DNA of 63,854 nucleotides, filler included, from an uncultured Methanosarcinales archaeon (GCA_964608065.1; 4 parts of 4 records of this genome joined end to end with filler, not necessarily neighbours in it), one strand, 5' to 3'. Positions 1 through 27,787 are shown, counted from the whole stretch's first letter. A program made the numbers and translations. The notes: generated by a model not told the origin, from the letters alone.

Positions 1-252
1 TTTTTCTAAATCATCATTTAATGTTATCTTTTTATACTCTGATTTTATCAACTCAATCTGATCTGCATTTCTATCTTTAAGTAGGTTTACTATTCTTTCT
101 CCATCAGGAGTCCAAAAATTTAACCACCTTTTAATATTCACTGCATCTGCATTTGCTTCTTTTTCTGTATAACTTTCATCAGCTGCAAAAACAACCCCAC
201 TTAAAACTACTAAAAAGACAATCATCAACACAATTAATTTATTCTTAAACAA
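1..252 (-). CDS. Secreted protein with an annexin-repeat-like segment (N-terminal part, truncated by the window edge; not in the ORF track)
   Basis: Manual translation from TTG at 252 (SD-like GGTGAGG upstream; overlaps the stop of the 954-aa gene): MFKNKLIVLMIVFLVVLSGVVFA|ADESYTEKEANADAVNIKRWLNFWTPDGERIVNLLKDRNADQIELIKSEYKKITLNDDLEK, open to base 1. Confidence 0.75.
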   Translation of the reverse strand, partial: MFKNKLIVLMIVFLVVLSGVVFAADESYTEKEANADAVNIKRWLNFWTPDGERIVNLLKDRNADQIELIKSEYKKITLNDDLEK

Positions 253-3109
253 CAGCCTCACCTTCTTCTTCCTCTTCCTCATCAGTTATACCAGAGCAAG
301 CACTATCATCAACTTTTAATTGGTTCCATAATGGTTCGCAATTCTTTCCTATGCCTAAATCGCATAATATCTCTAAACCAACATTCAAAGTATCAACAAC
401 AGTGCATAATTTACATGAGCCTATTGGAGTAATACTTGTACATTGTGTTCTGCACACAGTGCTTAATGCAAATCCAATTGAATCAGCAGGATGCGATAAA
501 GCCCTTTTCACATTCTGTGTTAAATAACCAAGCGCAGATGCAAATGGAAATAAGTTAAACATTTCTCCATAAACAAACTTGCAATAACCATAGCTTCTCT
601 GCGAAGTGCACATCTGTACAGGCATACCTGCTACAGTCTGCTTCAGGCAGTTTACATACTGGCAATCAATAACCCTTGCTTTCTGCAGATTATAAAATAC
701 ACCAGGCAGGCATAAAAATGCAACACTATAAATTAAGCTGTGCTGTGGATCAACATTACCAAACCACCCTTGTTTTGAATAAGCTTTGCTCTGCAGGAAC
801 CAATCTTCTCTTGCTAAATCTCCTAATCCTAAGAATCCTGATTTTTGCTCACCAGTTTTTTTATTAATACCCCATTCTTTTTCCCATAGCTGGCAGCTCA
901 TTAATTTACATGCCGGAAAAAAGTGTGTATCATACATTCTTCTTAAATTTTGTTTTTGTATTTCGGTGAGTTCACCCACCTCTTTAGCGGTTACACATGC
1001 TCCTGCAGATACTACTGATGGCGCTCCAACAGCACAAGCTTTTGCAAATATATCTTTGATATTAGAAAATATTATTGAAATATCTTTAATCCAATTACCC
1101 ATCCTGCATAATGTCTTGGCAAACTTAAACACACCATTAAAAGTCTCAATCCACTTACCTTTAACCAACCAATTATCACTAACTCTGTCTATCTCATTTT
1201 GAATACTTCCATCTAATGTTCCCAAAGGATTATAATAATATGAAATCTTTACTGTAACATTCTCAGTCTCTATTGAAGATATCCTTTGATTCTCAACTAA
1301 AGTTCTTATCTTTAAAGTACATTTTATAGGCAATTCATCTGCAGGAGGCTCTGCTCTTTCTAAGGTATATTTCAGATAAATCTTGTAAGGTAAATCTCCT
1401 GCTTCTAAAGTGTTATAATTAAACAGCTCAGGCTTATTTCCTAAAGCAGAGCTCAGATAAGCACCATAACTTTCACCCTCTGCATTAACACAATCTCCAA
1501 TCTCCACACTTAATGGCCACATATTACTTCTACCTTTTGCTCTTAAATCAACTGGGAAATAAATATAAGGATCATAAAGTGCAATTAATTCTTTATCTAT
1601 TCCATCAGGGCTTGGATAACCAACTGAAGCTTCCCAGTAATCTATCTCTTCAGTTTCAGCAGCAAAAACAATTAAGGGATGCTCAAAAATATCTGTGTTT
1701 CCAACAACATCTGTAAATTCAAACTTTAATCTATTTACAATATATCCTTCAATATTAATCTCACTTGTTTCCCAAATACATTCCCAATAATTACCATCCT
1801 GCGCACACAGCCCTGGAATATCTTTTGCATCTTTTATAAATTTTGAAAAATCAGCTGTAGCAGCCAATGCAATTGGCTCATAAAGTGTTGCTTTTATCAA
1901 CAAAGCATTGCCTGTTTGTATATAACCTTCTATCAATGGATTAGAGCCAGCAACTGGAATTACTTCAACACTTTCAACAATTGGAGCTTTAATATCAACC
2001 TTTACATCTTTTTCCAAACTTCCAACTAATTTATTTCCTAATTTATCGCTTGTTTCAGGGCTTACTCTAATTTTATAGGTTCCATCCCTTACAGTAATTG
2101 CAACATTGTTCCAATAACAATTAGTTCCTTCGCAATCAGTTGCAGGCATAACTCCAGAACCTAATTCACTTAGGTCCAAAATAACATCACTGTTATCCAA
2201 GCCAACACCAGCTTCTGTAAAACTAGCAGTAAATTTATTTTCTATTTCCTTAACATAACTCATTCCATTATAGATTATATCTGTTTTAATATCGGTAACT
2301 TCTGGACCTGTAGAATCTATCTTAAAGTTGTAAGATAAACTTACACTTTCAAAATTTCCTGATTTATCAGCAGCTCCAAACAACAGATTAGCAGTCTTGC
2401 TGTCACTTAAACTTATAGAAGCATCAAACCTGCATTTTGCACCGTCTATGATATCAGTACAACTGCCTGGACTTAAACTTGAGTAACTTCCACTAGGGTT
2501 TAAATCATTTAAATCAGCTATGATACTGTTTCTGTCTACACCACTTTCAGAATCTGTAATATCAACATAAACATATACATCCATATTTCCTGAAACCCAA
2601 TCATTGATGTCTCTGTTGACCCTGTCAGTAACTTTTATATTACTAATACCTGGTTGTGTACTATCTTCAGAAAGCTCTTTTTCTACAACAACTGCACTGT
2701 TTATTAAATTATCATCCTTGTCTGTAACAGTAACAATCATTTCCTCACTAAGTGAAGCTTCTTTTAGACTGTAAGGCATATCATAGAATGTACATCTTGT
2801 GAATTCTGGGAATGGAATACAACTTCCTTGTTTCATGCCCCCTGATACAAATTGTCCATTAACCTGCTTTAAATCAATCATATTTATCTCTACACTGACA
2901 TCTATCAAAACATTTTGAGGAATAAAGTATTCCACTAAGTTGCTGCTGCTGTCAGTTATCACTACATCTTTTAAAGTAACAGTCATACTCTGCGCTGTTT
3001 CCTCAGTTACTTCTGTAGTGTCTATAGCTTCAGCAAAAGCTAATGGAAACATGACTATTAAATTTATCATAAACAATGCAATTATCCTCAATGTTTTTTC
3101 TTTATTCAT
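245..3109 (-). CDS. Large secreted/surface protein (954 aa): signal peptide, Ig-like beta repeats with Cys pairs, Cys-rich hydrophobic C-terminal domain, acidic tail; paralog of 10720-14220
   Basis: Signal peptide ...FPLAFA|E; repeated D-x-x-x-P linkers and D-x-x-G-N motifs; many Cys in the last ~300 aa; shared blocks with the 1166-aa ORF. Confidence 0.85.
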   Translation of the reverse strand: MNKEKTLRIIALFMINLIVMFPLAFAEAIDTTEVTEETAQSMTVTLKDVVITDSSSNLVEYFIPQNVLIDVSVEINMIDLKQVNGQFVSGGMKQGSCIPFPEFTRCTFYDMPYSLKEASLSEEMIVTVTDKDDNLINSAVVVEKELSEDSTQPGISNIKVTDRVNRDINDWVSGNMDVYVYVDITDSESGVDRNSIIADLNDLNPSGSYSSLSPGSCTDIIDGAKCRFDASISLSDSKTANLLFGAADKSGNFESVSLSYNFKIDSTGPEVTDIKTDIIYNGMSYVKEIENKFTASFTEAGVGLDNSDVILDLSELGSGVMPATDCEGTNCYWNNVAITVRDGTYKIRVSPETSDKLGNKLVGSLEKDVKVDIKAPIVESVEVIPVAGSNPLIEGYIQTGNALLIKATLYEPIALAATADFSKFIKDAKDIPGLCAQDGNYWECIWETSEINIEGYIVNRLKFEFTDVVGNTDIFEHPLIVFAAETEEIDYWEASVGYPSPDGIDKELIALYDPYIYFPVDLRAKGRSNMWPLSVEIGDCVNAEGESYGAYLSSALGNKPELFNYNTLEAGDLPYKIYLKYTLERAEPPADELPIKCTLKIRTLVENQRISSIETENVTVKISYYYNPLGTLDGSIQNEIDRVSDNWLVKGKWIETFNGVFKFAKTLCRMGNWIKDISIIFSNIKDIFAKACAVGAPSVVSAGACVTAKEVGELTEIQKQNLRRMYDTHFFPACKLMSCQLWEKEWGINKKTGEQKSGFLGLGDLAREDWFLQSKAYSKQGWFGNVDPQHSLIYSVAFLCLPGVFYNLQKARVIDCQYVNCLKQTVAGMPVQMCTSQRSYGYCKFVYGEMFNLFPFASALGYLTQNVKRALSHPADSIGFALSTVCRTQCTSITPIGSCKLCTVVDTLNVGLEILCDLGIGKNCEPLWNQLKVDDSACSGITDEEEEEEGEAVV

Positions 3110-3160
3110 TTGTTAAAATTTTCCTCCGAAAATTTTTACATTGAAAATCGTAGATTTTCA
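3110..3160. repeat. Double-hairpin intergenic element (REP-like), copy A
   Basis: gttaaaattttc-ctcc-gaaaatttttac then tgaaaatc-gta-gattttca; closely resembles 27739-27787. Confidence 0.75.
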
Positions 3161-5386
3161 TTTTTTAAATTTAGGCTCTAATTCTGATCTGTAAGTTTCA
3201 GACAATTCCTCAACTTTGCCCATCTGATCTGTATCATCAATACTTAAAAGATTAAATGAACTGCTGTCTACAGTGCTTATTACATAAAATTCTATTACAT
3301 CATTATTATCCAGCTTATCTTTGGTTATTTCAAACTCAAAAACAGCTCCGCCTTCATTAAAAGTCTCATTGAACTTCATATCATCTATTGTTACACATTT
3401 TTCTCCAATACCTGCAATACCACCAGCACATTCTTCTTTTCCTTTAAACACAACTTCTTTTCTGCCAGCTAAATCAGGGAATTTGTAGAATAAATCCATT
3501 CTTGCTTTGTATTTTCCAGGGATAATCCTTTCAAGCACTGCTTCAAATTCATCTCCATTAAATATACCATTTACAGCAAAGTCTTCTTCATTCTGATTTT
3601 CTTTTATTTTCTCTAGAGACAGCACAACATACTCATTATCTAATAAATTGACAGCCTCATTATTAAACTTCCAGGATGTGTCTTTCATCATTCTTTTCTT
3701 TTTAACAACAAAATCCTTTGTTCTATAAGGCTCTAAATCAACAATTATTTTCTCATTGTCACATAAAACATCCTCTCTTTCACAGCCAGAAGTTGTGTAA
3801 CATCTTACACTATATGTTTGAGGATAAGACCAATAACCTTGCTTTGAAACCAATAAACTGCATCCAGAACCAACACATTGTGGTAAACTAATTTCATTCA
3901 AACCTTGTTCAACAACACCAATATCACAGCTTTCACTTGTACTGCTGTAAATTACATTCACATCTTCTAACCTGTTATTGTACTGTGCATCTAAAGTTTC
4001 TATTAAAACCTTAGCACATCTTTGATTTTCCTGACACAACAAACTTGTAGTTGGAGGAGCAACTAACTCTTTATCCCTGGAGCTGCAGTTCAAAGCTTTA
4101 TTATCTCTTACATTTGCTTCTAAACCAAAAATAAAATGATAGCCTTTTTTATTTAAAGCATCTTTATCATAAATATCCACTTTTACAGGATAGCTTATAT
4201 CATAATAAAAATCATATCTTCTTATTCCAACCCAGTCAAAATAACTTACAATAGCAGACTCAGGACCAATAACATCTCCACTTACACCTCTTCCGCTGAT
4301 GTCAAAATAAATAGGCCAGTAATTCAGATATTCAAAATTTACATTTAAATCTTCATAAGTATCTCCAGAAGGACTTACTATAGGCAATGTTGCTCTTCCA
4401 TAAAAATCAGCCCTTGCATTATAATTAGCAGTGTTATAGACCTGGAAGAAACTTGTGTAATGAGGTAGTATGTTGTTTTGTACTTTTTTTTTCACATCTG
4501 TTTTTGTCCATATAACAGGGGCTTTACCAGGCTCTAATGTTGAAGCGCTTATTGGAGGCAATTTATCCTTATTCATTCCTAGACCAAAAGCAGTTAACTC
4601 TTCAATAGTCCATCTGTCTAAATACATGAACTTTTGCTCAGCATTTGTAATACCTTCTGCTAATTCATATATCTTTCTCAGGTCTAATGGAATTGTAACA
4701 TAAAATCTATCAATTCTTTCTTTTGATCTTTGTTTTTTAATCTCTAGAGGATATTTTACTTCTATTACAACACTGTCTCTGATACTTACATCGCTTTTAA
4801 CAGTTCCTACTTCATTAATATTAAATCCTTGTTCTTCAAATGCCTTAAAATTATCCAGACAATTCCTTAAATTATTATCAATGTATTTTTCTAATTGGCC
4901 TTCTATGCTTGGCTCTCCCTGTGTTTTGTATAAATTTGGTTTTTCACTTCCGCATACACAATTTTCTCTGCATCTGTTATTTGATTTGAAATAATACCAG
5001 TAAGCTACAGAACTATCTTTGTTGTTTGGGAAAACCATAAAAGCACTGCTTTCTGTTGGCTCATTAGGATTAGCATTTATTCCATGTTCATATAAATCAA
5101 CATATCCTCCTGAATTACCAATCTTAGTTAATGCATTTTCTCCTTCCCTTATAATGCAATACTCTACAAACTGCTGCACAGGTTCAAACATAACAGGAAC
5201 TTCCTCAACAACAGCTTGTTCACTTTCAATAACTTTAACTCCTTCACTTTCAATAACAATATAAGAGCCGACTATTATTAATAGAATTATTCCTAGGATA
5301 ATGAATATAGTTACTTGACTTTTTTTTTGTCTTCGAAATCCAAGATTTCTAAGATGCTCAAAAATTTTTGATTTTTGACATTTCAT
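3158..5386 (-). CDS. Large class III signal-peptide (prepilin-type) protein, 742 aa; paralog of 7856-10108
   Basis: KKS|QVTIFIILGIILLII N-terminus; colinear similarity to the 750-aa ORF. Confidence 0.85.
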   Translation of the reverse strand: MKCQKSKIFEHLRNLGFRRQKKSQVTIFIILGIILLIIVGSYIVIESEGVKVIESEQAVVEEVPVMFEPVQQFVEYCIIREGENALTKIGNSGGYVDLYEHGINANPNEPTESSAFMVFPNNKDSSVAYWYYFKSNNRCRENCVCGSEKPNLYKTQGEPSIEGQLEKYIDNNLRNCLDNFKAFEEQGFNINEVGTVKSDVSIRDSVVIEVKYPLEIKKQRSKERIDRFYVTIPLDLRKIYELAEGITNAEQKFMYLDRWTIEELTAFGLGMNKDKLPPISASTLEPGKAPVIWTKTDVKKKVQNNILPHYTSFFQVYNTANYNARADFYGRATLPIVSPSGDTYEDLNVNFEYLNYWPIYFDISGRGVSGDVIGPESAIVSYFDWVGIRRYDFYYDISYPVKVDIYDKDALNKKGYHFIFGLEANVRDNKALNCSSRDKELVAPPTTSLLCQENQRCAKVLIETLDAQYNNRLEDVNVIYSSTSESCDIGVVEQGLNEISLPQCVGSGCSLLVSKQGYWSYPQTYSVRCYTTSGCEREDVLCDNEKIIVDLEPYRTKDFVVKKKRMMKDTSWKFNNEAVNLLDNEYVVLSLEKIKENQNEEDFAVNGIFNGDEFEAVLERIIPGKYKARMDLFYKFPDLAGRKEVVFKGKEECAGGIAGIGEKCVTIDDMKFNETFNEGGAVFEFEITKDKLDNNDVIEFYVISTVDSSSFNLLSIDDTDQMGKVEELSETYRSELEPKFKK
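5330..5382. repeat. Double-hairpin element in frame within the leader of the 742-aa gene
   Basis: gaaatc-caa-gatttc (5335-5349) and tcaaaaat-ttttg-atttttga (5358-5378); leader is 17 aa longer than in the paralog. Confidence 0.55.
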
Positions 5387-5547
5387 AAGTCTTTTAACCC
5401 CTTTTGGATTAGCTCTAGATCATACATTTTTTGTTCCATTAACTCTCTAGCCAGCATTGACTTTTTCTTTCCTAATTTTTTAGCTACTTTTTGAAGTAAT
5501 TCATCTATCTCTTTAGAAACAGTTATCCTTATCTGTATGCTACTCAT
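5383..5547 (-). CDS. Ribbon-helix-helix (CopG-like) small regulator, 54 aa (not in the ORF track)
   Basis: MSSIQIRITVSKEIDELLQKVAKKLGKKKSMLARELMEQKMYDLELIQKGLKDL*: alternating beta-strand, then helix-G-x-x-K-S-helix; ATGA overlap with the 742-aa gene. Confidence 0.8.
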   Translation of the reverse strand: MSSIQIRITVSKEIDELLQKVAKKLGKKKSMLARELMEQKMYDLELIQKGLKDL

Positions 5548-5567
5548 TTTTGTTTTTGGCTATGTTT

Positions 5568-5617
5568 GACCTACAATAGGTCTTAGTTTATACTGAATAT
5601 TGTACTAATATATAAAA
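5568..5617 (-). promoter_or_regulatory. TATA box (TTTTATATA, 5609-5617) plus palindrome GACCTA-caa-TAGGTC (5568-5582), putative RHH operator
   Basis: Perfect 6-bp inverted repeat between the TATA box and the RHH start codon. Confidence 0.55.
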
Positions 5618-5640
5618 CTTTCTATAAGAAAATTATTTAT

Positions 5641-5729
5641 TTATACTTTATTTAGCCTATTTTAATACTTTAGTTATACTTTATTTAGAAATATTATACT
5701 TTATTTATCCATTATTTATACTTAATTTT
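5641..5729. repeat. Phased direct repeats, consensus TTATACTTTA(TTTA)
   Basis: Copies start at 5641, 5663, 5674, 5694, 5716 (spacing 22, 11, 20, 22 bp). Confidence 0.65.
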
Positions 5730-5736
5730 GTATAAA

Positions 5737-6951
5737 TTACTCTTGAATCTCACTTAAAGTATTGCAGCTGTTTCTTAAATATTCATTAGTTATTTTATTA
5801 CAAACACTATAATCCTTATTCATGACAAAAGTTAGATAACAACTATCTCTTCTGGAATCTGTTGAAATTCTCTCGCATATCTTGCTGTCATTAGTTACTT
5901 CTGCGACTTTTTCATAGCATTTGTCTTTTGCCCTGTCTTCTTCCACATATTTACAATTATCTACTAACTTTGTTACCTCAGCTAATCCAACAAAACAATT
6001 ATCTCTATAAGTTATTTGAGGTATTTCTTTGCAATAATCTCCAGCTAAATCTGGATCAGTAGATGCAATCTCTTTTATCTTTTCTATCCTGTCATACATA
6101 GTTAATCCAAAAAATATATCACCGCAGTCTTTTTCACAGTTTTCATAATCTTCTCCATCTTCACAAATACTGTTTCCGCAGCAATCTTCTATTGTATCAT
6201 GCTTACATTCATAATTAGTTTCATAGCTGCAGTAATCCTCAGTACATTCATTATCATCATCACAGTTTGATGGGCAGCTTGCGCAAGGTTGGCAACTTCC
6301 ACCACAATCTACTCCTTTTTCATCTCCGTTTTGGATGTTGTCAAAACAGTTTGGCTCTATTTCTTGTGGTTCTTCAGGCTCTTCTATTCTTTCTTTTTCT
6401 ACAACAAAACTTTCAGAAGCTCTTGCTTCCTGGTCTTCATATCTTGCTATAACCTGTAAATCATAATTTCCTTCTAAACCATCTTCAGGAACATTTATAC
6501 TTAATCTTTTAGAAGTTGTTGTCTCTATAGCTATAGCCTGTTCTTTGCTGTTGACAACCTTATTTTTGCTGTCTCTGATAAAATATCTTAAATTAATATC
6601 ATATCTTCTTTCTGATCCTAGGTTTGTAAGTTCTACATTAAAATCCAGATCTTCACCTGGCTCTAGACTTGTGCTGTATAAATCAACTTCAACATCCAGT
6701 AATCTTTCAGTATTTTCAGGATTAAAATAAACCAAAAAAGCTGAGAAAATTAATCCTAAGCTTAAAACAATGCTTACAATCAGGACAACTGTATTTTTAG
6801 GAATATGGTGCTTAGTGTATAAATGACCTATTGCTTTGTCAACTGTTTCAGAACTATAGCCATGCTCAATCAAATGCTGTTTTACAGTATTTATATCAAA
6901 ACCTTTAGCTAATTCTGCCCTTATGTAGTTTAGTAAAGCTTTGTTAACCAT
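5737..6951 (-). CDS. Single-pass membrane protein (404 aa): short cytoplasmic helical domain, TM, Ig-like domain, Cys-rich repeats
   Basis: TM VVLIVSIVLSLGLIFSAFLVYF; CFDNIQNGDEKGVDCGGSCQPC; CDDDNECTEDYC; C-x-x-I...R-D-x-C-Y repeats. Confidence 0.8.
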   Translation of the reverse strand: MVNKALLNYIRAELAKGFDINTVKQHLIEHGYSSETVDKAIGHLYTKHHIPKNTVVLIVSIVLSLGLIFSAFLVYFNPENTERLLDVEVDLYSTSLEPGEDLDFNVELTNLGSERRYDINLRYFIRDSKNKVVNSKEQAIAIETTTSKRLSINVPEDGLEGNYDLQVIARYEDQEARASESFVVEKERIEEPEEPQEIEPNCFDNIQNGDEKGVDCGGSCQPCASCPSNCDDDNECTEDYCSYETNYECKHDTIEDCCGNSICEDGEDYENCEKDCGDIFFGLTMYDRIEKIKEIASTDPDLAGDYCKEIPQITYRDNCFVGLAEVTKLVDNCKYVEEDRAKDKCYEKVAEVTNDSKICERISTDSRRDSCYLTFVMNKDYSVCNKITNEYLRNSCNTLSEIQE

Positions 6952-6952
6952 T

Positions 6953-7492
6953 TTATATAACTGTCCATTCTTTTGTTTTGTATTTCATCTCCCAAACTTC
7001 CAAAAAATCTTCAAAATAGCTTGTTTGATTTATAGGGACCAAAACAGCACCTATACTAACTCTGTCTCCTTTAATTTTTTTCAAGTTTTTTTTTAAAGCA
7101 ATCCCAAACAACGTCTTTTTTGACTTGTTAAGATGCTTTAAGTCATATGCGTAAAGCCTCATTGGCCTTATTTTTGATATATCCCTTAAAAAACCATCTT
7201 GTTTTACACTATACCCCTCATTTAATAAACTTAAAAATAATGAACTGTAAATATCATCAAAAGTGATAAAATCCAAATGCGCCTTTTTAACACCTATATC
7301 CTTCTTTAATTTAGAGGCTAACTTAACATCTTTTTCTTTCACAATAAAAGCTAAATCAATATCTTTAGGGTTATCCCTTCCTTTAACAAAAGACCCAAAA
7401 ATTATGATATCTTCTACATCATCATATCTTTTTAAGATCCTCTTCAAATTCTTTTTCAATTCCACTAGTCTCGGCAATTTCTTTGATTGCAT
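6953..7492 (-). CDS. Minimal nucleotidyltransferase (MNT, antitoxin-like) with an extra C-terminal domain
   Basis: IIIFGSFVKGRDNPKDIDL = GS...DxD Pol-beta NTase motif; C-terminal ~70 aa resemble the ORF at 14213-14500. Confidence 0.85.
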   Translation of the reverse strand: MQSKKLPRLVELKKNLKRILKRYDDVEDIIIFGSFVKGRDNPKDIDLAFIVKEKDVKLASKLKKDIGVKKAHLDFITFDDIYSSLFLSLLNEGYSVKQDGFLRDISKIRPMRLYAYDLKHLNKSKKTLFGIALKKNLKKIKGDRVSIGAVLVPINQTSYFEDFLEVWEMKYKTKEWTVI

Positions 7493-7781
7493 ATTTTACC
7501 TCATCACAATCCTTCTTGTTCATAATATGATCATAAGAATCTGTATAAGTTGTAAATACTCCATCCACTATCTTATGGACATCTGGGAAAGATACTCTTA
7601 AAAAAAGGAAAATTTCAGTATGATTTTTAGGAGCTTTCCTTAACTTTTCTGTTATTAAATAAGAGCATAATATAGTTAATACCTTGTAATAATTGCTTAC
7701 AGCAGGACCATATCTTTCTTTAGATTCAGAACTAATTCCTTCTTCCAAAAATTCCTTAAATATTTGTTTGTGTTCTCCCAT
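7422..7781 (-). CDS. HEPN-like protein (partner of MNT)
   Basis: All-helical ~119 aa with AVSNYYK and PKNH, overlapping the MNT gene; own TATA near 7838-7846; ATG at 7781 preferred to TTG at 7793. Confidence 0.7.
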   Translation of the reverse strand: MGEHKQIFKEFLEEGISSESKERYGPAVSNYYKVLTILCSYLITEKLRKAPKNHTEIFLFLRVSFPDVHKIVDGVFTTYTDSYDHIMNKKDCDEVKYAIKEIAETSGIEKEFEEDLKKI

Positions 7782-7855
7782 TTTGATTATCAAAAATTAA
7801 ACCATTTTTATCTTTTAATTTTGACTATCAATATGCTTATATATAAATCTTTTGA

Positions 7856-10108
7856 TTAACTAAAAACTGGTTTAATCCAATTTTTGAATGTCAGTGAATA
7901 TTCTTCGATTCTAGCAGATTCATTCATTCCAATTTTTGGATCAATTAAACCTTCTCCATCAATACAGGTTGCATCAGGAACCCTTATTGCATAAAACTCT
8001 GCATTTTGATTATCTAAGTCACTGTTTGATATGTCTAAATAACTTGTTGTCTGGTCAAATATTGCCCCGCCAATAGAAGTCATTTCAATAGGATCTTCTG
8101 GAATCCATTCATCAACTATATCACAACATCCTTGTATACATATTCCTGGACAGTTTGAAATTGGAATATTTGTACTATAATCCCATGAATCTTGTGTCTT
8201 ACACCCTATAGTATTTTTACAAAGATGCTTACATTCTGCATGGATTGTATATTTGTTATTATCGATATAAGTTGCTCTGACTTCATATCTTCCTGGAACT
8301 AATTTTAAAGTTTGCTCTTGATCATTATCATCAAAAATAAATGCTTGTGTTGAAATTTGGTCATAGATTTGGTCATCTCTGTATTTATTGATCATTAGGA
8401 TAATTTGTTCTCCACTTGTTAATTCTGTTGCACCAGGACAACAACTATCTGGCTGGGTCATTCTGTAAACCTTTGAAGTTACTTTTAATTCTCTATAAGG
8501 CTCTAGACTTGTTGTAATCATTTTATCTTTGCCAAACTCTGTTGTTAGTAGCATAGCTTTCCCCATATAACCTTCTTTTTCTATAATCAGATATCCTCCA
8601 CTGCAAATTGGGAACTTTCCTTTATAGACCCCTTCATTATTAGTTGCACCTATAACACAAGAATCATATCTTCCACAACCAAAACTTAGTGAAGCACCTT
8701 CAACAGGTTCACCATTTTTGTTGTCTTTAATCCTAATCTCAATATCTCCGCTTAACTTTTGATTTTCTTTGCACATTAAGCTTTTTGTTGGAGGTAAAGG
8801 CACAGGCACACTAGGAGAAACACCAACATTAACATTACTATAATCCCATAATCCAATTGTTCCCTGGCCTAAATGCCAGTTTAATAAATTAATATTATCT
8901 CTTATATTTGTCTCTAAACCAAACATAAACTTATACCCTCCTTCAAAATTAACCTTAACTTCATCCCTATCATCTTCTAATAAAACTATATTTGGATAAC
9001 TTATATCATAGAAAAACTCATAATAATTAGTCTGTGTTGGAGGCAGTATTCCCAATGGATAAGACTGCTTGTCAATATTTGGCTTTAAGACATTCCCGCT
9101 TCTTGGAGTTATATCAAAATACAATGGCCAGCCTAAGTAAAAGAAATCTGCTGATAAATAAGTTTGTTCTTCCAAAGGATTTAAGAAATATATTTTATAA
9201 GCATCTCCAAAATATTCTCCATTTTTGGTTTTATCTACTTTTATATAGTTTGTATTAACAGTTAAAATATCTTTTAATCTTAATTCAACTATATCTTTTA
9301 ACCATGTTATTGCATAATATTCATGATCAACAGCTGCTATTGGAGGCAGTTTATTTACATCTATTCCTGAATAAGCGCTTATAATATAACTTAATATATT
9401 CTCCATACTTTGATTATTCATCTCATCTATTGTTATATATGCTGCTACTCTTAAAATCTCATTTAGATTCAATGCAATGCTTGTTTTAAATTCTTTTAAA
9501 TCAGCTTTTGAGTTACCTTTAGAAACCTCAATTGGATAATCAACAAAAACATTTACATCTTTTGCTGCTATTGTTGTTTCTGTTTTTATCTTACCTTTAT
9601 TAAACTTAAAACCCTGTTCTTTAAACTCTGCAAAATCATTTAAGCAGTTATCAAGCTCTCTGTTAATGAATCTATTTATTTGTCCTTCAATGTCTTCTTT
9701 GCTTGGAGTTAAACTGCTTACATAACATTCTTGGCAATTATTTTGACTTTGTAAATACCACCAATAAGCTATAGGCTCATCAAGTTCTGTTGATAAGCTA
9801 ACTCCATCAGACTCTGTAGGTCTGGTAACATCAATATCAAATTTTCTTCCACTTAGCTCTTCATCATTCATATCTATATAGCCGCCATGCTCTCCTATTT
9901 TTTTTAAAGCTTCTATTGTTTTTTCTTTAATACATTCTTCAACATAAGTTTTAATTGGATCAAACATTACAGGAACTTCTTCTACTAAAACTTCTTGCTC
10001 TGCGCTTTTTCTTCTTGTTGTTACAGAATAAATCAATATAGAGGTCATTAACAATAGAACTATTCCTAGTATGATGAAAATTGTTACTTGGCTCTTTCTA
10101 GTTGCCAT
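7856..10108 (-). CDS. Large class III signal-peptide (prepilin-type) protein, 750 aa
   Basis: MATRKS|QVTIFIILGIVLL; carboxypeptidase-regulatory-like beta segment (GEPVEGASL...ATNNEGVY); Cys-rich insert near the C-terminus. Confidence 0.85.
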   Translation of the reverse strand: MATRKSQVTIFIILGIVLLLMTSILIYSVTTRRKSAEQEVLVEEVPVMFDPIKTYVEECIKEKTIEALKKIGEHGGYIDMNDEELSGRKFDIDVTRPTESDGVSLSTELDEPIAYWWYLQSQNNCQECYVSSLTPSKEDIEGQINRFINRELDNCLNDFAEFKEQGFKFNKGKIKTETTIAAKDVNVFVDYPIEVSKGNSKADLKEFKTSIALNLNEILRVAAYITIDEMNNQSMENILSYIISAYSGIDVNKLPPIAAVDHEYYAITWLKDIVELRLKDILTVNTNYIKVDKTKNGEYFGDAYKIYFLNPLEEQTYLSADFFYLGWPLYFDITPRSGNVLKPNIDKQSYPLGILPPTQTNYYEFFYDISYPNIVLLEDDRDEVKVNFEGGYKFMFGLETNIRDNINLLNWHLGQGTIGLWDYSNVNVGVSPSVPVPLPPTKSLMCKENQKLSGDIEIRIKDNKNGEPVEGASLSFGCGRYDSCVIGATNNEGVYKGKFPICSGGYLIIEKEGYMGKAMLLTTEFGKDKMITTSLEPYRELKVTSKVYRMTQPDSCCPGATELTSGEQIILMINKYRDDQIYDQISTQAFIFDDNDQEQTLKLVPGRYEVRATYIDNNKYTIHAECKHLCKNTIGCKTQDSWDYSTNIPISNCPGICIQGCCDIVDEWIPEDPIEMTSIGGAIFDQTTSYLDISNSDLDNQNAEFYAIRVPDATCIDGEGLIDPKIGMNESARIEEYSLTFKNWIKPVFS

Positions 10109-10723
10109 TTACCAGTCACCCCCATGTAGGCCACCACCACTACCACCACTAGAACCATAACTGCTGCTTGGAACATATACTCCTTTATTATCTACAATTG
10201 GAACAGTAATTATTGTAGTTATATCGCTGCCCTTTAACTCATAACCCATCATTACTTGGTCATATTCATCAGTTAGATACTCAGCCCAATAACCAGAATT
10301 AGCTTCACCTTTTCCTAAATTGGTTGGTGCAACAACTCGTTTATACTCATCTTTATCTTTTTTCTTCAATCTTACAGCAAATTCTAAGCTTCTGTTCATA
10401 GCATCCTCTATATAATATCCAACTTCATACATAACTGTATCATCTGGAAGTTTTTCTGATTTTTCTCCTTGTAATGTGACTGTTGTTTGTGATAAATAAG
10501 TTGGACCATTGTCAACATTATATGATTCAGGAGTTCCACCCCATTTTCTGCAAACTTCTACTTCCCAATCTTCTACTGCATACCAATTTTGTACTCTTGG
10601 GTCAAATGAATACCAATCAGATCCTGCATCCCCTTCTGTATATGTTGTGTATTTGGAGCTTATTGGTGTAACTAACAAAATCATTACTAAAACCCACATT
10701 AAAATTATTTTTTTAGTTTTCAT
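10109..10723 (-). CDS. Secreted hypothetical protein (204 aa) with Gly/Ser-rich tail
   Basis: Signal peptide MKTKKIILMWVLVMILLVTPISS; tightly packed between its neighbours. Confidence 0.8.
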   Translation of the reverse strand: MKTKKIILMWVLVMILLVTPISSKYTTYTEGDAGSDWYSFDPRVQNWYAVEDWEVEVCRKWGGTPESYNVDNGPTYLSQTTVTLQGEKSEKLPDDTVMYEVGYYIEDAMNRSLEFAVRLKKKDKDEYKRVVAPTNLGKGEANSGYWAEYLTDEYDQVMMGYELKGSDITTIITVPIVDNKGVYVPSSSYGSSGGSGGGLHGGDW

Positions 10724-13700
10724 ATGTAATCATCTATATCCTCACAATAATCATAACCTTCCAGTTCATCTGTATATGGTTTAATTATAATACCGCTGCT
10801 TACTATATCAACAACATTCTTTATTGTTTGTATAGTCGCTATTCCAGAACAAATTCTATGTGGAAAAACAGCACATGGTGGCAGTGGACATTCTGTAACA
10901 ACAGCAGTATAATCCCATATTAAACATGGTAGCCCTAGAATGCTTAATACTAATTGAACTTTATCTTTTAGCATAGCACTCCATATATTTTCAAACCATT
11001 TTCCCCAGCTGTGACCATGCAATTTATATTGTGCACTGACATAGTACAGACAGTATCTCTCTCCAAATGCTCTATCACACGTATCTATAGGTAATCCTAA
11101 CTTTGAATTCTCATGCACACATTTTATCTGCATGCATTTTATCTGTCTTAGTTTTTTCTGGTTGTAAATAATTCCTGGCAAAAACAAACATTTTTCAGAG
11201 TAATATATGCTTTTATAAGGATCATAAGTCCAATAACTTGGTTCTATTATTCCTTCAACATTTGTTCTTGAACCAGGAGCATTCCAACTTCCTTTTAGTG
11301 GAAGGTTAACATTCATTGAGCCACCACTTAAACCAGTAGGTATCGTTACAGCGATAGAATTCGGTTTGGCTAAATCTGTCACTATAGTTAACATAGTATG
11401 TCCTAAAGCATTAGCATTGCATAAATATCCAGAATGTATCATGCAAGTCCATTTAAAGAAATAACCTGGTGTTGGTGGTATAGGTAATAGCCTTGGATCC
11501 CAAATCCAAAATCTTATAGCGTTGTGGATACTATTTAATGGTATACAAGCTGATTTGTGGGTTGCTTCAGCTAAAGGTTCTCCAACTATTGTTGTTTCCA
11601 AAGGACACGATGTTAACTCAGTAATTACTGTTAAAATTCCTTGTAGCAAAGCATCAATCTGAGCAATATTTCTAGCGATTGTACAAAGTAAATTTAACAT
11701 ATCATTATATTCTTCCTCTGTTTCAATCTTTTTATCCAACTCTTCAATCTCTTTTCCAAGGTCTTCAATCTTATCCTGGACATTATCTTCAATTGTGCCT
11801 AAAGGAATATTATAAAGAGGAACTTCTACTTTAACTCCCTCGTACTCTGGAAGACTATAGACTTTCTGTCCTGCTTTGACTCTTAAGGTCATATTACAGT
11901 CTATTGGGAATGTTTCTTCATCAACTCCTGTGATTGATGTTGCTGTTTTTACAACAATATAAGGAGTAAGTGTGTACTCATTCATCAGATATCCTGTGTT
12001 ACTTAGATGATCTGTCTTGCTGCAGTCAACAGCTTTGGTTAATATTTGTGGATCCCATCTTTGATTATTATATTCTGATTTTACACTTATCCTTGGGTTA
12101 AGGAAAACACTTATTGGTATTTTAGAAGCTGCTTGCTTGTCTATGAATCTAGGAACAAAGATTACAGGTTGTTGAATATAAAAGAAATCTGGAATGTTTC
12201 TTGTTTCTAAAGTGTATATAACAGCATTATGGTTTCTTACTGCTTTGTTTCCAGCAGCATCTGTTGCAATGATATTAACATTTGCGCTTGTGTATTCTGT
12301 TTTTAAATCACCTACTTCAAGATAGCATTCATGCATGTTTGGAATGCCTTCATAATCGCCGCATTCCATAATCTCAACAGAGCCAGTCTCGCTTATACTT
12401 GTTGTATTAATCTCAACTTTCAGCAGGTTCTTTTCTGTAACATTTACATTAAATATCAAAGTATCTTTATATGTTGGGAATTCAGGAAGAGTATTCACAC
12501 TGTTTATAACTGGGTTTCTGATATCAACAGTAAATTCTTTTTCTATATTTGTCCCTACATTTCCTAGTTTGTCTTCACCACTAAGAGTAACCATGACTTT
12601 GTTTCCATTATTACTCTTGGCTTCTATATTCCAATAACATGTCCAGCCATTAGTGCAGTTATCAGCATTTACATTGTCTAATCCAACTTCATTTAAGTTA
12701 AGATAAATATTGCTTTCATTCAATCCAACACCTATCTCATTTATAGAAGCTGTAATTAAAGTGTCTTTTCCAATAAAATATTTGCTGTCAAAGACTTTGT
12801 CAGAAACAAAATTACTAAAAACAGGTTCTTTATTATCAACCAATAATTTATAACTGAAAGTTTGCTCTTTTTCATTACTGCTTCTGTCTGCAGCATAAAA
12901 TTTAAAACTGACTTGTTTTGAAGTTTCGCTTTCTAAATTTATTGCAACACTCCATTTGCAGACAGAACCATTGCCCTGAGTACTACAACTTGACCTTTGA
13001 ATTTCTCCATAATCCTCGTTTAAAGCAGATAAATCAGCTTTTACTTTATTTTCATCTAAACCAGACTCACTTTCTATGATCTCAACCTCTAAAACTACTT
13101 TTACGTTTTTCCCATTATTCCAGTCAAGCTCATTTCCTCTTGAATCTGTTAATTTGAAATTACTTATTACAGGGCTTATTGTGTCTTCAATAAAACTATA
13201 AGGCATGTCTTCTGAGTTATAGTTTCCAACCAAATCTTTCAAAGTTACTGTTATTGTAGGGTTAGTATTTTTCATCTTTATTTTTGTAACCCATGAACAT
13301 TCAGTTGCATTGCAAGAAGTTGCAGCCTTATTAATAACATCTAAATCATTGATATTTAATACAGATTTTTGGGCATCTATTCCTGAATCATCAGTAAATT
13401 CAACTGTAACTTTAACATCTACTAATTCATTTTCAATATAGTATCCAATATCAGTTCCATCTGGTTTTGTAATCTTGATATTAGTTATATCTGGACCAGA
13501 AAAATCTGTGATAATGTTAACACTTTTGCTGCTGCTTAAACCAAAAGTATCATAAACAGTTAATCTTGCTTCAATATTATCTTCCAGAAGAAGGCTTGCA
13601 TTTATTGAGATATTGCCATTATAATCACATGATCCTGGGTCTGAATTTATTTCTATAATTTCAGAATAATCTCCTACTTCTAATATAGCACCCATTATTC

Positions 13701-14220
13701 CGCTGCATTTTCCTACAGCATCTGCTTTTTCTTTTATACTAAATGTAAATTCAACAGTATCGTTTGTATTATATACTGCTTTATTAGTCTCAAATTTAAC
13801 AATCTCTGGCTCTGTGCTGTCGCAGACTACCTCGACTTGTGCTCTGTCATATAAATCTCCATTATAGTAAAGATTGATATCATTAACATGATTAGGGCAA
13901 ACTTTTAATCCATATTCATCTAAATCAAGACTATCAAGATAGCAATAATAACTTCCATCGTAATCCAGACTGCAGCTTGTGAATTCAAATCCAGTCTCAC
14001 TGTCAGTGCCCCATAATCTAATTTGACTGGGTTCAATAACTTCATCATTTATTTTTGCATTAACTTCAAAACTGATTAAATCTGCGTCATCCCGGATATA
14101 ACCTTCAAGCATGTCTTCACCATAAACCTTAGGATTAGTCAATTCAGCAAAAGCTATTGGCAGGACAAGTATTAAATTTATCATAAATGCTGCGATTATT
14201 TGTAAGTATTTTTTATTCAT
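10720..14220 (-). CDS. Large secreted/surface protein (1166 aa): Ig-like repeats, coiled coil, Cys-rich hydrophobic C-terminal domain
   Basis: Signal peptide ...LPIAFA|E; repeated D..(G/E/S)P linkers and D..GN; coiled coil VQDKIEDLGKEIEELDKKIE; paralog of 245-3109. Confidence 0.85.
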   Translation of the reverse strand: MNKKYLQIIAAFMINLILVLPIAFAELTNPKVYGEDMLEGYIRDDADLISFEVNAKINDEVIEPSQIRLWGTDSETGFEFTSCSLDYDGSYYCYLDSLDLDEYGLKVCPNHVNDINLYYNGDLYDRAQVEVVCDSTEPEIVKFETNKAVYNTNDTVEFTFSIKEKADAVGKCSGIMGAILEVGDYSEIIEINSDPGSCDYNGNISINASLLLEDNIEARLTVYDTFGLSSSKSVNIITDFSGPDITNIKITKPDGTDIGYYIENELVDVKVTVEFTDDSGIDAQKSVLNINDLDVINKAATSCNATECSWVTKIKMKNTNPTITVTLKDLVGNYNSEDMPYSFIEDTISPVISNFKLTDSRGNELDWNNGKNVKVVLEVEIIESESGLDENKVKADLSALNEDYGEIQRSSCSTQGNGSVCKWSVAINLESETSKQVSFKFYAADRSSNEKEQTFSYKLLVDNKEPVFSNFVSDKVFDSKYFIGKDTLITASINEIGVGLNESNIYLNLNEVGLDNVNADNCTNGWTCYWNIEAKSNNGNKVMVTLSGEDKLGNVGTNIEKEFTVDIRNPVINSVNTLPEFPTYKDTLIFNVNVTEKNLLKVEINTTSISETGSVEIMECGDYEGIPNMHECYLEVGDLKTEYTSANVNIIATDAAGNKAVRNHNAVIYTLETRNIPDFFYIQQPVIFVPRFIDKQAASKIPISVFLNPRISVKSEYNNQRWDPQILTKAVDCSKTDHLSNTGYLMNEYTLTPYIVVKTATSITGVDEETFPIDCNMTLRVKAGQKVYSLPEYEGVKVEVPLYNIPLGTIEDNVQDKIEDLGKEIEELDKKIETEEEYNDMLNLLCTIARNIAQIDALLQGILTVITELTSCPLETTIVGEPLAEATHKSACIPLNSIHNAIRFWIWDPRLLPIPPTPGYFFKWTCMIHSGYLCNANALGHTMLTIVTDLAKPNSIAVTIPTGLSGGSMNVNLPLKGSWNAPGSRTNVEGIIEPSYWTYDPYKSIYYSEKCLFLPGIIYNQKKLRQIKCMQIKCVHENSKLGLPIDTCDRAFGERYCLYYVSAQYKLHGHSWGKWFENIWSAMLKDKVQLVLSILGLPCLIWDYTAVVTECPLPPCAVFPHRICSGIATIQTIKNVVDIVSSGIIIKPYTDELEGYDYCEDIDDYI

Positions 14221-15419: not shown

Positions 15420-16532
15420 TTACCTAACCCTGCAACCATCTCCGACTTTTTCTACTATAACTTCTTCTTTGTCTGTTTTCAACACTTTATCTTTATACCA
15501 ACATTTTCCATCTTTAACTGTCATTTTTATCTTTAAGAAACTGTCAAAGCTTATTTGTTCTGAAGAGGATTGAATATCTTCAAAATAAACTTTATCCCCT
15601 TGATTAGAGTCTTTAACAGTTAACAATCCAACTTCTTTTTCATCATCAGAACATCCAGCTAATAACATCCCCTGGCTTTCAATGCCTCTTAGTTTAGCAT
15701 ATTTTAGATTAGTAACAACAATCAGATTCTTATCCTTTAATTCATCTATATTATAATGTTCTTTAATTCCAGCTACAATCTGTCTTTTCTCTTGACCAAG
15801 ATCAACTTGCATTACAATTAGTTTATCAGCATCAGGGTGATTTTTGACTTCTAAAACTTTTCCAACCTTTAAATCTAAAGGTATTGTTTCTTGCATTTTA
15901 ACCTCCACTTTCTTCAATATTATTTTTGCTTTGTTTATTTTATGTTTTTTTAAGTTAAAATTAATATCTTTCCATTTAAGATTTTTAAGATTCAGTTGTT
16001 TTTGAATCTCTAAGGCAAAATTAGGAATGATTGGCTCAATTAAAATACTTAGATTTTTTACTAAGTTGATGCATGTTCCTAAGATTTTGTGAGTTTTTTC
16101 TTTATCATCTTTGATTAATTTCCATGGTTCACTATCCTGGAAATATTTGTTTCCTAAAGATGATACAGCTAATATCAAATCAACTGTTTTTTTGAAATCA
16201 TACTTTTGATATGATTTTTTTATTTCTTCTGTTTGTTTTAGTGTTTTATTTATTATTTTGTTATCATCTGTTCCTTTTACTTCTGAGTTGAAATTTTTGT
16301 TTGTAAATGATAAAACTCTATAACAGAAATTGGATAGATTGCTGACTAATTCAGAATTTATTCTTTCAATTACTAATTCTTCATTATAGTCTCCATCACT
16401 GTCAATAGGCATTGCTCCTGAAATATAAAATCTGAATGGATCAGTGCCGTATTTTTCAATTTGTTGGAATGGCTCAATCACATTACCAATGGATTTGCCC
16501 ATCTTCCTTCCTTTTGATAAAATAAATCCATG
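15420..16532 (-). CDS. metG: Methionine--tRNA ligase, C-terminal part (truncated at contig edge)
   Basis: HGFILSKGRKMGKS (KMSKS loop), anticodon domain GNKYFQDSEPWK, C-terminal OB domain HPDADKL...RGIESQGMLLA. Confidence 0.92.
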   Translation of the reverse strand, partial: HGFILSKGRKMGKSIGNVIEPFQQIEKYGTDPFRFYISGAMPIDSDGDYNEELVIERINSELVSNLSNFCYRVLSFTNKNFNSEVKGTDDNKIINKTLKQTEEIKKSYQKYDFKKTVDLILAVSSLGNKYFQDSEPWKLIKDDKEKTHKILGTCINLVKNLSILIEPIIPNFALEIQKQLNLKNLKWKDINFNLKKHKINKAKIILKKVEVKMQETIPLDLKVGKVLEVKNHPDADKLIVMQVDLGQEKRQIVAGIKEHYNIDELKDKNLIVVTNLKYAKLRGIESQGMLLAGCSDDEKEVGLLTVKDSNQGDKVYFEDIQSSSEQISFDSFLKIKMTVKDGKCWYKDKVLKTDKEEVIVEKVGDGCRVR

Positions 16533-16633: not shown

Positions 16634-17773
16634 TTAAATAAACCTAAGCCTCTGTTAAAAATAGCCAATAAGCCAATTCTACAGCACAACTTAGAGCAAA
16701 TCAAAGATATAGCAACTGAAATAATTCTTGTAGTTGGTTACAAAAATGAAATGATAAAAAAATTCATAAAAGAAAACTATCCAAATTTAAACATAAAATT
16801 CATTCATCAAGAACAGCAGTTTGGAACAGGACATGCTTTAATGCAGTGTGAGAAACAAATAAAAGACAGATTCATTTTAATGAGTGCTGACGATCTTTTG
16901 TTTAAAGAAGACATTAAAAAACTGACAAAACAAAAATATTCATTGCTTGTAAAACAAATAAAAAACCCAAAATCATTCGGAGTAATCAAAACAAAAGGAA
17001 AACTTATACAAAAAATAATAGAAAAACCATCTAACATTAAATCAGCATTAGTCAGCACTAGCTGCTATATTCTGGATAAAAACATATTCTATTACTTAAA
17101 ACAAATCAAAAAATCAAAAAGAAATGAATATGAGTTAACAGAAGCAATAAACCTGTTAGCAAAAAATAATAATATAAATTACATCAAATCTAACTGGATT
17201 CCAATAACCTATCCATGGGATTTAATCAATGCAAATGAAATTTTGTTAAAAAATATAAAAACACAAATCAAAGGAAAAATAGAAAGATATGTAACAGTTA
17301 AAGGAAACATACAATTAGGAAAAAACTCAGTAATAAAATCAGGAGTATATATTGAAGGCAATGTAATTATAGGGGAAAACTGCACAATAGGTCCAAACTG
17401 CTATCTAAGAGGTTCTACAACAATCGGAAACAACTCAAAAATAGGACAAGCAGTTGAAATTAAAAACTCAGTTATAGGAGACAACACAAAAATCCCTCAT
17501 CTAAGCTATTTTGGAGACTCAGTTATAGGAGACAATGTAAATATTGGTGCTGGAACTATCACAGCTAACTTAAGGCATGATAAATCCATTATAAAATCAA
17601 TGATAAAAGGAACTTTAATCAAAACAGGAAGAAATAAGATAGGAACAATCATTGGAGACAATGCAAAAATCGGAATCAAAAACACAATTTATCCTGGAAG
17701 AAAAATATATCCTAATGTAAAAACATTTCCAGCTTCAATAATAAAGGAGGATATTTTAGAATGTGCGGGATAA
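16634..17773 (+). CDS. glmU: Archaeal bifunctional sugar-1-phosphate nucleotidyltransferase/acetyltransferase (GlmU-type); its start lies at 63747
   Basis: Frame open from the contig edge (LNKPKPLLKIANKPIL); EYELT; hexapeptide repeats; HLSYFGDS, GAGTITANLRHD; upstream of glmS. Confidence 0.9.
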   Translation, partial: LNKPKPLLKIANKPILQHNLEQIKDIATEIILVVGYKNEMIKKFIKENYPNLNIKFIHQEQQFGTGHALMQCEKQIKDRFILMSADDLLFKEDIKKLTKQKYSLLVKQIKNPKSFGVIKTKGKLIQKIIEKPSNIKSALVSTSCYILDKNIFYYLKQIKKSKRNEYELTEAINLLAKNNNINYIKSNWIPITYPWDLINANEILLKNIKTQIKGKIERYVTVKGNIQLGKNSVIKSGVYIEGNVIIGENCTIGPNCYLRGSTTIGNNSKIGQAVEIKNSVIGDNTKIPHLSYFGDSVIGDNVNIGAGTITANLRHDKSIIKSMIKGTLIKTGRNKIGTIIGDNAKIGIKNTIYPGRKIYPNVKTFPASIIKEDILECAG

Positions 17774-19521: not shown

Positions 19522-20522
19522 AACAACTAACATCATTAGAATTACATCATTTAGTAAAAGAATTCCAGTTTTTAATAAATGGAAAAATAGATAAAATATA
19601 CCAGCCAGATAAAAAAACCTTCTTGCTACAGTTCTATGTCCCAAGCAAAGGAAAACAAATACTAAAGATTGTTCTGCCATCTTTCATTTTCCTCACAGAA
19701 CACAAACAACCAGCAGAAGAAGCAAGACAATACTCAATGTTTCTGAGAAAATACCTTAGCAATGCAAGATTAAGATCCATAAAACAATTAGAATCTGAAA
19801 GAATTTTAGAGTTTGAATTTCAAAAAGACGAAAAATATTACTTGATTATTGAACTGTTCAGCAAAGGCAATATTATACTTTGTGACAAAGACCACGTCAT
19901 AATCAACCCATTAGAAATACAAAAATGGAAAGACAGAACAATCAAAAAAGGAGAAAAATACCTCTATCCAAAACGCGATTATAATTTCCTTAAAATAACA
20001 CAGCCTCAATTAAAAGAATTCATTGAAAAAACAGATAAAGACAAAATTGTAACAGCTTTGGCATCAGACCTGGGCTTAGGAGGAATTCCTGCAGAAGAAA
20101 CATGCTCTATAGCAGATATAGACAAAAACACAGCTCCTAAAGAAGCAGACCAAAAAAAAATACTTAATGCATTAAGAAAACTATCAGACAAAAAACATGA
20201 AACAAACAGTAAATCAATCGAAGAATATCTACAAAAACTGCCAGAAAAACCAAAGACAAACCATGAAAAAAAAATAAATAAGATAAACAACATAATAGAG
20301 CAACAGGAAAAAAGCATCAAAAATATTGAAATAAAAATAAAAGAAAACAAAAAAAAAGCCGAATCCATTTACAATAACTATAAATTAATCAATGAAATAC
20401 TTACAGAGATAACTAAAGCGAGAGAAAAATATTCCTGGAAAGAAATAAAACACAAGCTTAAAGGACATAAAATCATAAAGCAGATAGACGAAAAAGAAAA
20501 GAAAATCATAATAGAAATATAA
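19518..20522 (+). CDS. Rqc2/NFACT (FbpA-like) N-terminal half: NFACT-N, HhH and coiled coil only
   Basis: FLRKYLSNARL, ERIL, LIIELFSKGNIIL, DRTIK.GEKY.YP, GLGG..AEE; ends at 334 aa. Confidence 0.85.
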   Translation: MKQLTSLELHHLVKEFQFLINGKIDKIYQPDKKTFLLQFYVPSKGKQILKIVLPSFIFLTEHKQPAEEARQYSMFLRKYLSNARLRSIKQLESERILEFEFQKDEKYYLIIELFSKGNIILCDKDHVIINPLEIQKWKDRTIKKGEKYLYPKRDYNFLKITQPQLKEFIEKTDKDKIVTALASDLGLGGIPAEETCSIADIDKNTAPKEADQKKILNALRKLSDKKHETNSKSIEEYLQKLPEKPKTNHEKKINKINNIIEQQEKSIKNIEIKIKENKKKAESIYNNYKLINEILTEITKAREKYSWKEIKHKLKGHKIIKQIDEKEKKIIIEI

Positions 20523-20526
20523 TAAT

Positions 20527-20540
20527 AAAAAAAAAAAAAA
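20527..20540 (-). terminator. Oligo-T terminator downstream of the 5S rRNA
   Basis: Long A-run on + (T-run on -) next to the 5S 3' end. Confidence 0.6.
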
Positions 20541-20542
20541 GA

Positions 20543-20660
<118 letters not shown>

Positions 20661-20770
20661 CAGTCTAGAATTCACTAACCCTTTAAAAAGCTTACTATTT
20701 TAAACAATCAAACAAAAAAAAAGTAACATTTTTAAATACTTATATAACATATAGCCAAAGGGGGGTTAAA

Positions 20771-23724
<2,954 letters not shown>

Positions 23725-23734
23725 TCTTAAAAAA

Positions 23735-27738: not shown

Positions 27739-27787
27739 TTGTTAAAATTCCTCCGAATTTTAACCTTAAAAATATGTAGTATTTTCA
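27739..27787. repeat. Double-hairpin intergenic element (REP-like), copy B
   Basis: gttaaaattc-ctcc-gaattttaac (perfect 10-bp stem) plus aaaatat-gta-gtatttt; matches 3110-3160. Confidence 0.75.

Follow-up and report, generated by a model that had tools for sequence, protein, structure and literature searches.

The first nucleotides of a 63,854-nt stretch of DNA (filler included; hereafter the window) from an uncultured Methanosarcinales archaeon (GCA_964608065.1) hold the 5' part of a minus-strand gene that, with fair probability, encodes a divergent Sec-exported protein opening with an annexin-like repeat and co-transcribed with a 954-aa exported protein. The resemblance of the visible fragment to annexins goes beyond chance, and annexin is the best-supported family for its mature part by Pfam, by phmmer against PDB sequences, by an independent annexin HMM, by hhalign and by language-model features. 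Homology to annexins is considered probable rather than proven, because the window edge truncates the gene; the case rests on ~51 residues of one truncated gene and should be treated as a lead, not a result. The archaeal origin of the DNA is supported by window ORFs that score above the cutoffs for uS2_euk_arch, RadB, aMBF1 and Arch_glmU.

The truncated gene and its probable export signal

The visible part of the gene comprises the first 84-94 codons, depending on the start, and the remainder lies left of base 1 (Table 1). The peptide quoted in the preliminary description of this DNA is part of the minus-strand translation of 1..282, letter for letter. No Shine-Dalgarno-like motif was found upstream of ATG 282. 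The TTG 252 start overlaps the stop codon region of the upstream gene and is preceded by such a motif; since GGAG/GGTG-type motifs occur at -16..-6 in 11 of the 50 large ORFs of the window, an SD-led start at this TTG is plausible but not settled.

Table 1. Features at the left edge of the window and selected features of the remaining sequence (residues are numbered from ATG 282)
Feature	Position	Strand	Basis or remark
5' part of protein-coding gene	1..282	minus	ATG 282-280, 94 codons; 3' end beyond left edge
Candidate start 1, ATG	280..282	minus	within last 12 codons of upstream gene, other frame
Shine-Dalgarno-like GGTGAGG	256..262	minus	3 nt upstream of TTG 252
Candidate start 2, TTG	250..252	minus	end coordinate of the preliminary description; 84-aa product; n-region MFKNK
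Candidate start 3, ATG	223..225	minus	in-frame
Signal-peptide-like segment, residues 1-33	184..282	minus	by inspection
Annexin-like repeat, residues 43-93	4..156	minus	profile alignments and alignment-guided model
AB loop N55-F56-W57-T58-P59-D60, in place of K-G-x-G-T-D	103..120	minus	profile alignments
Upstream gene, 954-aa exported protein	245..3109	minus	without Pfam or NCBIfam family
404-aa membrane-anchored protein	5737..6951	minus	weak CARDB, 22.4 bits vs cutoff 22.7
Small nucleotidyltransferase between modules	6953..7492 / 7422..7793 pair	minus	Pfam Polbeta/NTP_transf_2
306-aa protein	61419..62339	minus	C-terminal part matches end of S-layer model TIGR01564, 35.8 bits, cutoff 25

The features of a Sec (class I) signal peptide can be recognized by inspection at the N-terminus, in agreement with the preliminary description. 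The n-region is basic with either of the first two starts (MRKRKKKVRLLFKNK or MFKNK), the h-region is an 18-residue hydrophobic core, LIVLMIVFLVVLSGVVFA, which falls within the 7-20 residues expected, and small residues stand at -3 and -1, V-F-A (V31, A33) preceding a predicted cut between A33 and A34. The protein is thus probably exported via the Sec route. The one Pfam match besides Annexin, to 'Conotoxin' (E 0.026, residues 15-47), was rejected, as it covers the signal-peptide region only.

The stop codon of the 954-aa gene, at 245-247, lies 3 nt past TTG 252 and 35 nt past ATG 282. Because the fragment gene abuts or overlaps this gene on the same strand, the two are probably co-transcribed, and the coupling to a surface cluster proposed in the preliminary description follows directly from the sequence. 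The N-terminus of the 954-aa protein is signal-like, its C-terminal half is rich in Cys and its tail is acidic.

The same arrangement bears on the possibility that 1..282 is not a gene but an open frame that arose by chance where the contig ends, downstream of the 954-aa gene. Such a reading would account for the incomplete frame, for the lack of a homologue in protein searches and for the ambiguous start, where the n-region obtained from ATG 282 (MRKRKKKVR) is the GAG/GAA run of the neighbour's acidic, poly-Glu tail read out of frame. We regard it as extremely improbable, given that only 81 of the 8898 stop-to-stop frames in this 30.4% GC window reach at least 94 codons, a length that is therefore uncommon, and that the frame shares the strand of the abutting upstream gene, has GGTGAGG ahead of TTG 252, encodes a well-formed signal-peptide pattern and resembles the profile of a real protein family more closely than expected by chance.

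Search evidence for an annexin-like repeat

The best Pfam family for the fragment is Annexin (PF00191; E 0.022, 15.2 bits), with residues 49-87 aligned to positions 5-43 of 66; the match is limited to these positions because the window cuts the domain. The claim of an annexin repeat is upheld by this profile to the extent that annexin is the top family for the mature part, but the score stays below the gathering cutoff of 25, and the E-value, being per protein, is not significant across all window ORFs and all families. A phmmer comparison with all PDB sequences (E<=10) gave 56 matches, 51 of which contain annexin, including the top 43, with annexin VI as the best (E 0.0017). The other five are a gamma-glutamyltranspeptidase and four cellodextrin phosphorylases.

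A profile independent of the fragment was constructed from 538 repeats of 119 annexins, retrieved with the four-repeat annexin P0046 (967 annexins at E<=1e-5, the 119 new proteins being taken from the best 120 of the 967). The fragment scores 19.0 bits against this HMM (E 6.3e-8 for the single comparison), with residues 43-93 placed on positions 2-51 of 70; about 51 of the ~70 repeat positions fall inside the window. The reversed fragment scores -1.4 bits, and none of 2000 composition-matched shuffled fragments reaches 19.0 bits (mean -1.1, sd 2.8, max 10.4). When all 763 six-frame ORFs of 30 aa or more from the window are scored, E<0.1 is reached by the fragment alone (1.6e-4, 17.3 bits); the next-best ORF has an E of 0.69 and 5.7 bits. 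Alignment of the fragment to the 538-repeat alignment by hhalign gave a probability of 93.0% over 45 columns.

The alignment to the annexin repeat runs without gaps from D46-A47 to Y83, and the core and turn positions of the repeat are kept at D46-A47, I50, L54, I64-V65, L67-L68, R71, Q75, I79, Y83, I86 and L92. The repeat pattern described earlier, including its Arg, Q..I...Y and D-L elements, is confirmed by this alignment and by the outcome of the shuffling. Compared with PF00191, and especially with its prokaryotic and GWGTD-type members, the fragment has in common the D-A at the start of helix A, the hydrophobic core of helices A-C, the Arg that follows helix B, the Q..I...Y in helix C and an 'L-x-D-D-L-E' at the start of helix D.

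The same results weigh on an alternative in which the protein belongs to an unrelated exported helical family and its likeness to annexins is convergent or due to chance, as specified for a short amphipathic helix-loop-helix rich in K, E, D and N and encoded in an AT-rich genome. The Pfam score below the cutoff would be expected in this case, as would the missing GxGT hallmark, the lack of a homologue of the fragment's own, a language-model score under 0.9, a single-sequence AF2 model made of long helices only, and a comparison confined to ~51 residues. We nevertheless consider this alternative rather unlikely, because shuffled sequences fall well short of the fragment's score, none of the other 762 ORFs of this AT-rich window exceeds 5.7 bits, the matches occupy core positions of the structure, without gaps, along all of the available length, and family-agnostic searches that cover more than 40 residues return annexins only.

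The search that covers the largest sequence space is an exhaustive phmmer run over 1.84 billion representatives, in which 66 proteins were found at E<=1e-3 and no close homologue of the fragment was present. Seven of the 66 are annexins, six of them identified as such by Pfam and one (P0058) by repeat detection. They give the highest scores for a single stretch in this search (10.6-23.8 bits, with 45-52 of the 60 mature residues covered), and BLASTP aligned the fragment to the annexin P0014 at 33% identity (64% positives) across 55 residues. An HMM of all 30 repeats of the seven annexins gave 34.7 bits over 45 residues, a value that is biased by the selection of its members for similarity to the fragment. 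In language-model feature space the 13 clusters nearest to the mature part are all annexins, at 0.84-0.83; scores below 0.9 provide a lead only, and shuffled proteins often reach this level.

Word-indexed protein searches were likewise negative for homologues: the 94-aa fragment gave 151 candidates among longer proteins, none at E<=0.01, and 8 among proteins of similar length, none at E<=0.1. The sole match in the genome collection (tblastn), 14 residues at 10001..10042 of locus L001 on a Stenotrophomonas contig, was attributed to chance because its frame differs from that of the 453-aa ORF located there. No paralogue of the fragment was found elsewhere in the window. Without a close homologue, the fragment has no alignment of its own family.

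The remaining 59 of the 66 proteins point in a different direction. Residues W57-V65 (W-T-P-D-G-E-R-I-V) also fit the WD40/PD40 blade motif W-[ST]-P-D-G-x-R-I, a match that was missed in the preliminary description and that holds the lowest E-values of the exhaustive search. All 59 contain [ST]PDG repeats, their E-values reach down to 4.4e-13, and the 14 that were scanned are without exception WD40/PD40 by Pfam. BLASTP to one such protein (P0045) gave 50% identity over 20 residues, a blade HMM scored 13.6 bits over 16 residues (shuffle max 6.4), and the hhalign probability was 94.4% over 16 columns. On these grounds the fragment could be taken for the first blade of an exported PD40/WD40-type (TolB-like) beta-propeller, W57-V65 then corresponding to the strand motif typified by W-S-P-D-G-K-x-I-a. 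We find this very unlikely, for reasons of coverage, family membership and predicted structure.

With respect to coverage, the [ST]PDG matches are limited to 16-20 residues between ~53 and 74 ('WLNFWTPDGERIVNLLKDRNA'), and their single-stretch scores are mostly 4-10 bits (max 13.8), summed over 5-20 blades. The E-values down to 4.4e-13 can thus be explained by one nine-residue motif, shared with the consensus W-S-P-D-G-x-R-I-v of PF00400 and PF07676, that is counted over many blades. Whole-sequence E-values are unreliable here because repeat copies add up, and WD40/PD40 proteins reach even smaller ones than annexins; for short queries compared with repeat proteins in general, such values are not evidence of homology. 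A match to a whole blade of ~40 residues with strand periodicity was not found, the blade HMM aligning 16 residues only, and the blade profile is doubly biased, as its windows were anchored on the motif and came from proteins that had been picked for their resemblance to the fragment. The two hhalign probabilities, one over 45 columns and the other over 16, cannot by themselves separate annexin from blade.

With respect to family membership and structure, Pfam contains no PF00400 or PF07676 match even at E<=10, there is no beta-propeller among the 56 PDB matches, and the language-model neighbours are annexins. The periodicity is helical rather than strand-like, both after the motif and at residues 55-62, the very place at which a blade would require strands; muH(100 deg) is 0.45-0.63 for residues 47-62 and 0.44-0.63 for residues 55-62, muH(170 deg) is at most 0.30 (0.01-0.30 in 55-62), and the 60 mature residues, which are Gly-poor in comparison with blades, contain one Gly and one Pro. 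The single-sequence AF2 model, although of low confidence (pLDDT 62), consists of helices only, with a break at 58-60, and has no strand. Coverage, the lack of a propeller match in Pfam or PDB, helical periodicity and the all-helix AF2 prediction therefore separate the annexin reading from the blade reading.

Probable fold of the repeat and its aromatic loop

The annexin-like fragment is compatible in sequence with the annexin repeat fold, a right-handed superhelix of five helices (A-E), as judged by modelling, with helices A-C and the start of D alone falling inside the window. An AF2 model of the 60 mature residues guided by seven annexin rows has a pLDDT of 92.3 and a pTM of 0.77, and its helices span residues 40-54, 61-69 and 73-93. 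In terms of the repeat, helix A corresponds to ~40-54, the AB loop to 55-60, helix B to 61-69, the turn with the conserved Arg71 to 70-72, and helix C with the start of D to 73-93; the remainder of D and all of E lie beyond the window. So does the acidic cap residue of the D/E loop, which would be expected about 39 residues past the loop Thr, at about residue 98, whereas the window ends at residue 94. Foldseek superimposed the model on annexin A2 (TM 0.81-0.82, rmsd 0.7 A, 51 columns) with E-values of at least 0.16, which are no better because the query is short. Since its input alignment contained only annexins, the guided model demonstrates compatibility and is not independent evidence. The MAFFT alignment behind it is also chimeric, the last 8 residues of the fragment being placed on a later annexin repeat at homologous positions. 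The B/C and C/D turns are absent from the single-sequence model.

In the AB loop, F56-W57-T58-P59-D60 stands at G-x-G-T-D and N55 at the Lys position, and a G-x-G-T-D type II Ca2+ loop is not present in the visible repeat. Among the 538 annexin repeats, loop position 1 is Gly in 416, position x is Trp in 144, position 3 is Gly in 526, position 4 is Thr or Ser in 529 and position 5 is Asp in 460, whereas neither position 1 nor position 3 is Gly in 10. The preliminary description had proposed an aromatic loop in place of the Ca2+ loop. The absence of GxGT holds, but the Trp is a native annexin feature, as 144 of the 538 repeats have Trp at x and the fragment shares it with GWGTD-type annexins; what is unusual in the loop is the loss of both Gly residues and of the Thr, not the Trp. 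The visible repeat would thus lack a canonical type II Ca2+ site while keeping an aromatic loop tip. An EF-hand reading of T-P-D-G-E-R-I, made by eye, was discarded, as it would put Phe at position 1 and Arg at position 8.

In some plant annexin repeats and in alpha-giardins the type II Ca2+ site is lost and the scaffold is kept; these proteins are cytosolic and eukaryotic, whereas the fragment is archaeal, carries an export signal and offers one partial repeat. In the survey by Kodavali et al. (2014; PMC3894181), GxGTD is described as characteristic but not obligatory for each repeat and as wholly missing only in the Nakamurella annexin, the Trp of GWGTD is reported from plant annexins and nine bacterial domains and linked to membrane binding, and the authors caution that loop motifs of greater divergence could exist.

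The fragment differs from known annexins in two further respects, its archaeal host and its Sec-type signal peptide. None of 117 Met-initiated proteins among 126 sampled annexins was signal-like by a crude heuristic applied to a mostly eukaryotic sample. About thirty bacterial annexin homologues and none in Archaea are counted in the 2014 survey (PMC3894181), while the supplementary figure legends of a 2023 paper list an annexin domain from an 'archaeon' (PMC10311354), which indicates that archaeal annexin entries exist in databases. The phrase 'archaeal annexin' was not found in the literature searched, and a search for prokaryotic, Asgard or DPANN annexins returned nothing relevant among the matches listed.

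Genomic neighbourhood and proposed function

The first 14 kb of the window (245..14220, minus strand) contain two modules, paralogous to each other, that encode large exported proteins to which neither Pfam nor NCBIfam assigns a family. The 954-aa protein has a 1166-aa paralogue (10720..14220; E 5e-49); signal peptides and Ig-like-looking repeats are common to both, as is a C-terminal half rich in Cys. A 742-aa protein (3158..5386) and a 750-aa protein (7856..10108) form a second paralogous pair (E 3e-74, 30% identity); both begin '...[RK]KSQVTIFIILGI...', a start reminiscent of the class III (pilin-type) signal peptides of archaea. Each module has, directly after its 954/1166-type gene, a gene for a small exported protein, namely the fragment in one and a 204-aa protein (10109..10723) in the other, and no similarity is detectable between these two.

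Between the modules, the small nucleotidyltransferase has an MntA-antitoxin-like match in NCBIfam (27.9 bits, below the cutoff of 60) and overlaps a 123-aa ORF of no family; together they may form a type VII toxin-antitoxin-like pair. The neighbouring 404-aa protein ends in an acidic half that is rich in Cys and weakly matches the 'Dictyostelium repeat'.

Nucleotide-sugar and glycosylation genes (16751..47004 and 54078..63759) make up most of the remaining window. These include GlmU, GlmS, two UDP-sugar dehydrogenases, epimerases/dehydratases, a GDP-mannose dehydratase, GmhA/GmhB-like enzymes of the heptose pathway, AglJ-like and PgaC-like glycosyltransferases, and GlmM, which passes the bacterial-type model (578 bits, cutoff 447.55) but falls short of the archaeal-type one (359, cutoff 439). 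The S-layer model matched by the 306-aa protein, TIGR01564, is of the Methanococcus type. N runs occur at seven places between ~16.5 and 48.9 kb, six of 44 bases (three pairs) and one of 100. The match of a MetRS-like ORF (15420..16502) is confined to the C-terminal half of MetRS, and that of a GlmU-like ORF (16751..17773) starts at profile position 60; each ORF ends at an N run, and both look truncated because of these runs rather than as split genes.

For the gene at the left edge we propose the following working model. The product of this gene of a low-GC archaeon would be exported by the Sec machinery with a cleavable signal peptide, predicted to be cut between VFA and AD, and the mature protein would open, ~10 residues past this cut, with a divergent annexin-type repeat. 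The visible repeat would be unable to form a canonical type II Ca2+ site, and it would keep the loop Trp of GWGTD-type annexins beside a Phe, in what is the membrane-facing loop of annexins. Given the lack of the canonical site and the aromatic loop, the module would dock peripherally, probably Ca2+-free at this repeat. The docking surface may be lipid outside the cell, either the organism's own membrane or that of a partner cell, and the annexin-like module would be made together with the 954-aa exported protein encoded directly upstream. What the sequence shows directly is the ORF, its signal-like N-terminus, the gene overlap and a likeness to annexins that is statistically non-random, whereas homology, fold, export, lipid binding and Ca2+ independence are what we infer. 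The fullest version of the model, in which the protein is a signal-bearing archaeal true annexin whose first repeat has exchanged the Gly-rich Ca2+ loop for a rigid aromatic F-W-T-P-D loop, acts outside the cell as a Ca2+-free clamp on lipid bilayers, be it the archaeon's own ether-lipid membrane or that of a partner or host cell, and works with the adjacent large exported proteins, is put forward tentatively and appears on balance doubtful.

Annexins are regarded as essentially eukaryotic, cytosolic, Ca2+-dependent membrane binders; their targets are acidic phospholipid membranes, binding is usually Ca2+-dependent, and each protein carries one to several tandem repeats, typically four. If the model is true, the known range of the annexin fold would be widened to include an archaeal, Sec-exported member without a Ca2+ loop. 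Such a protein would also be a natural example of Ca2+-independent membrane docking by an aromatic loop, and it would provide a data point on the origin of annexins and on whether the fold predates eukaryotes.
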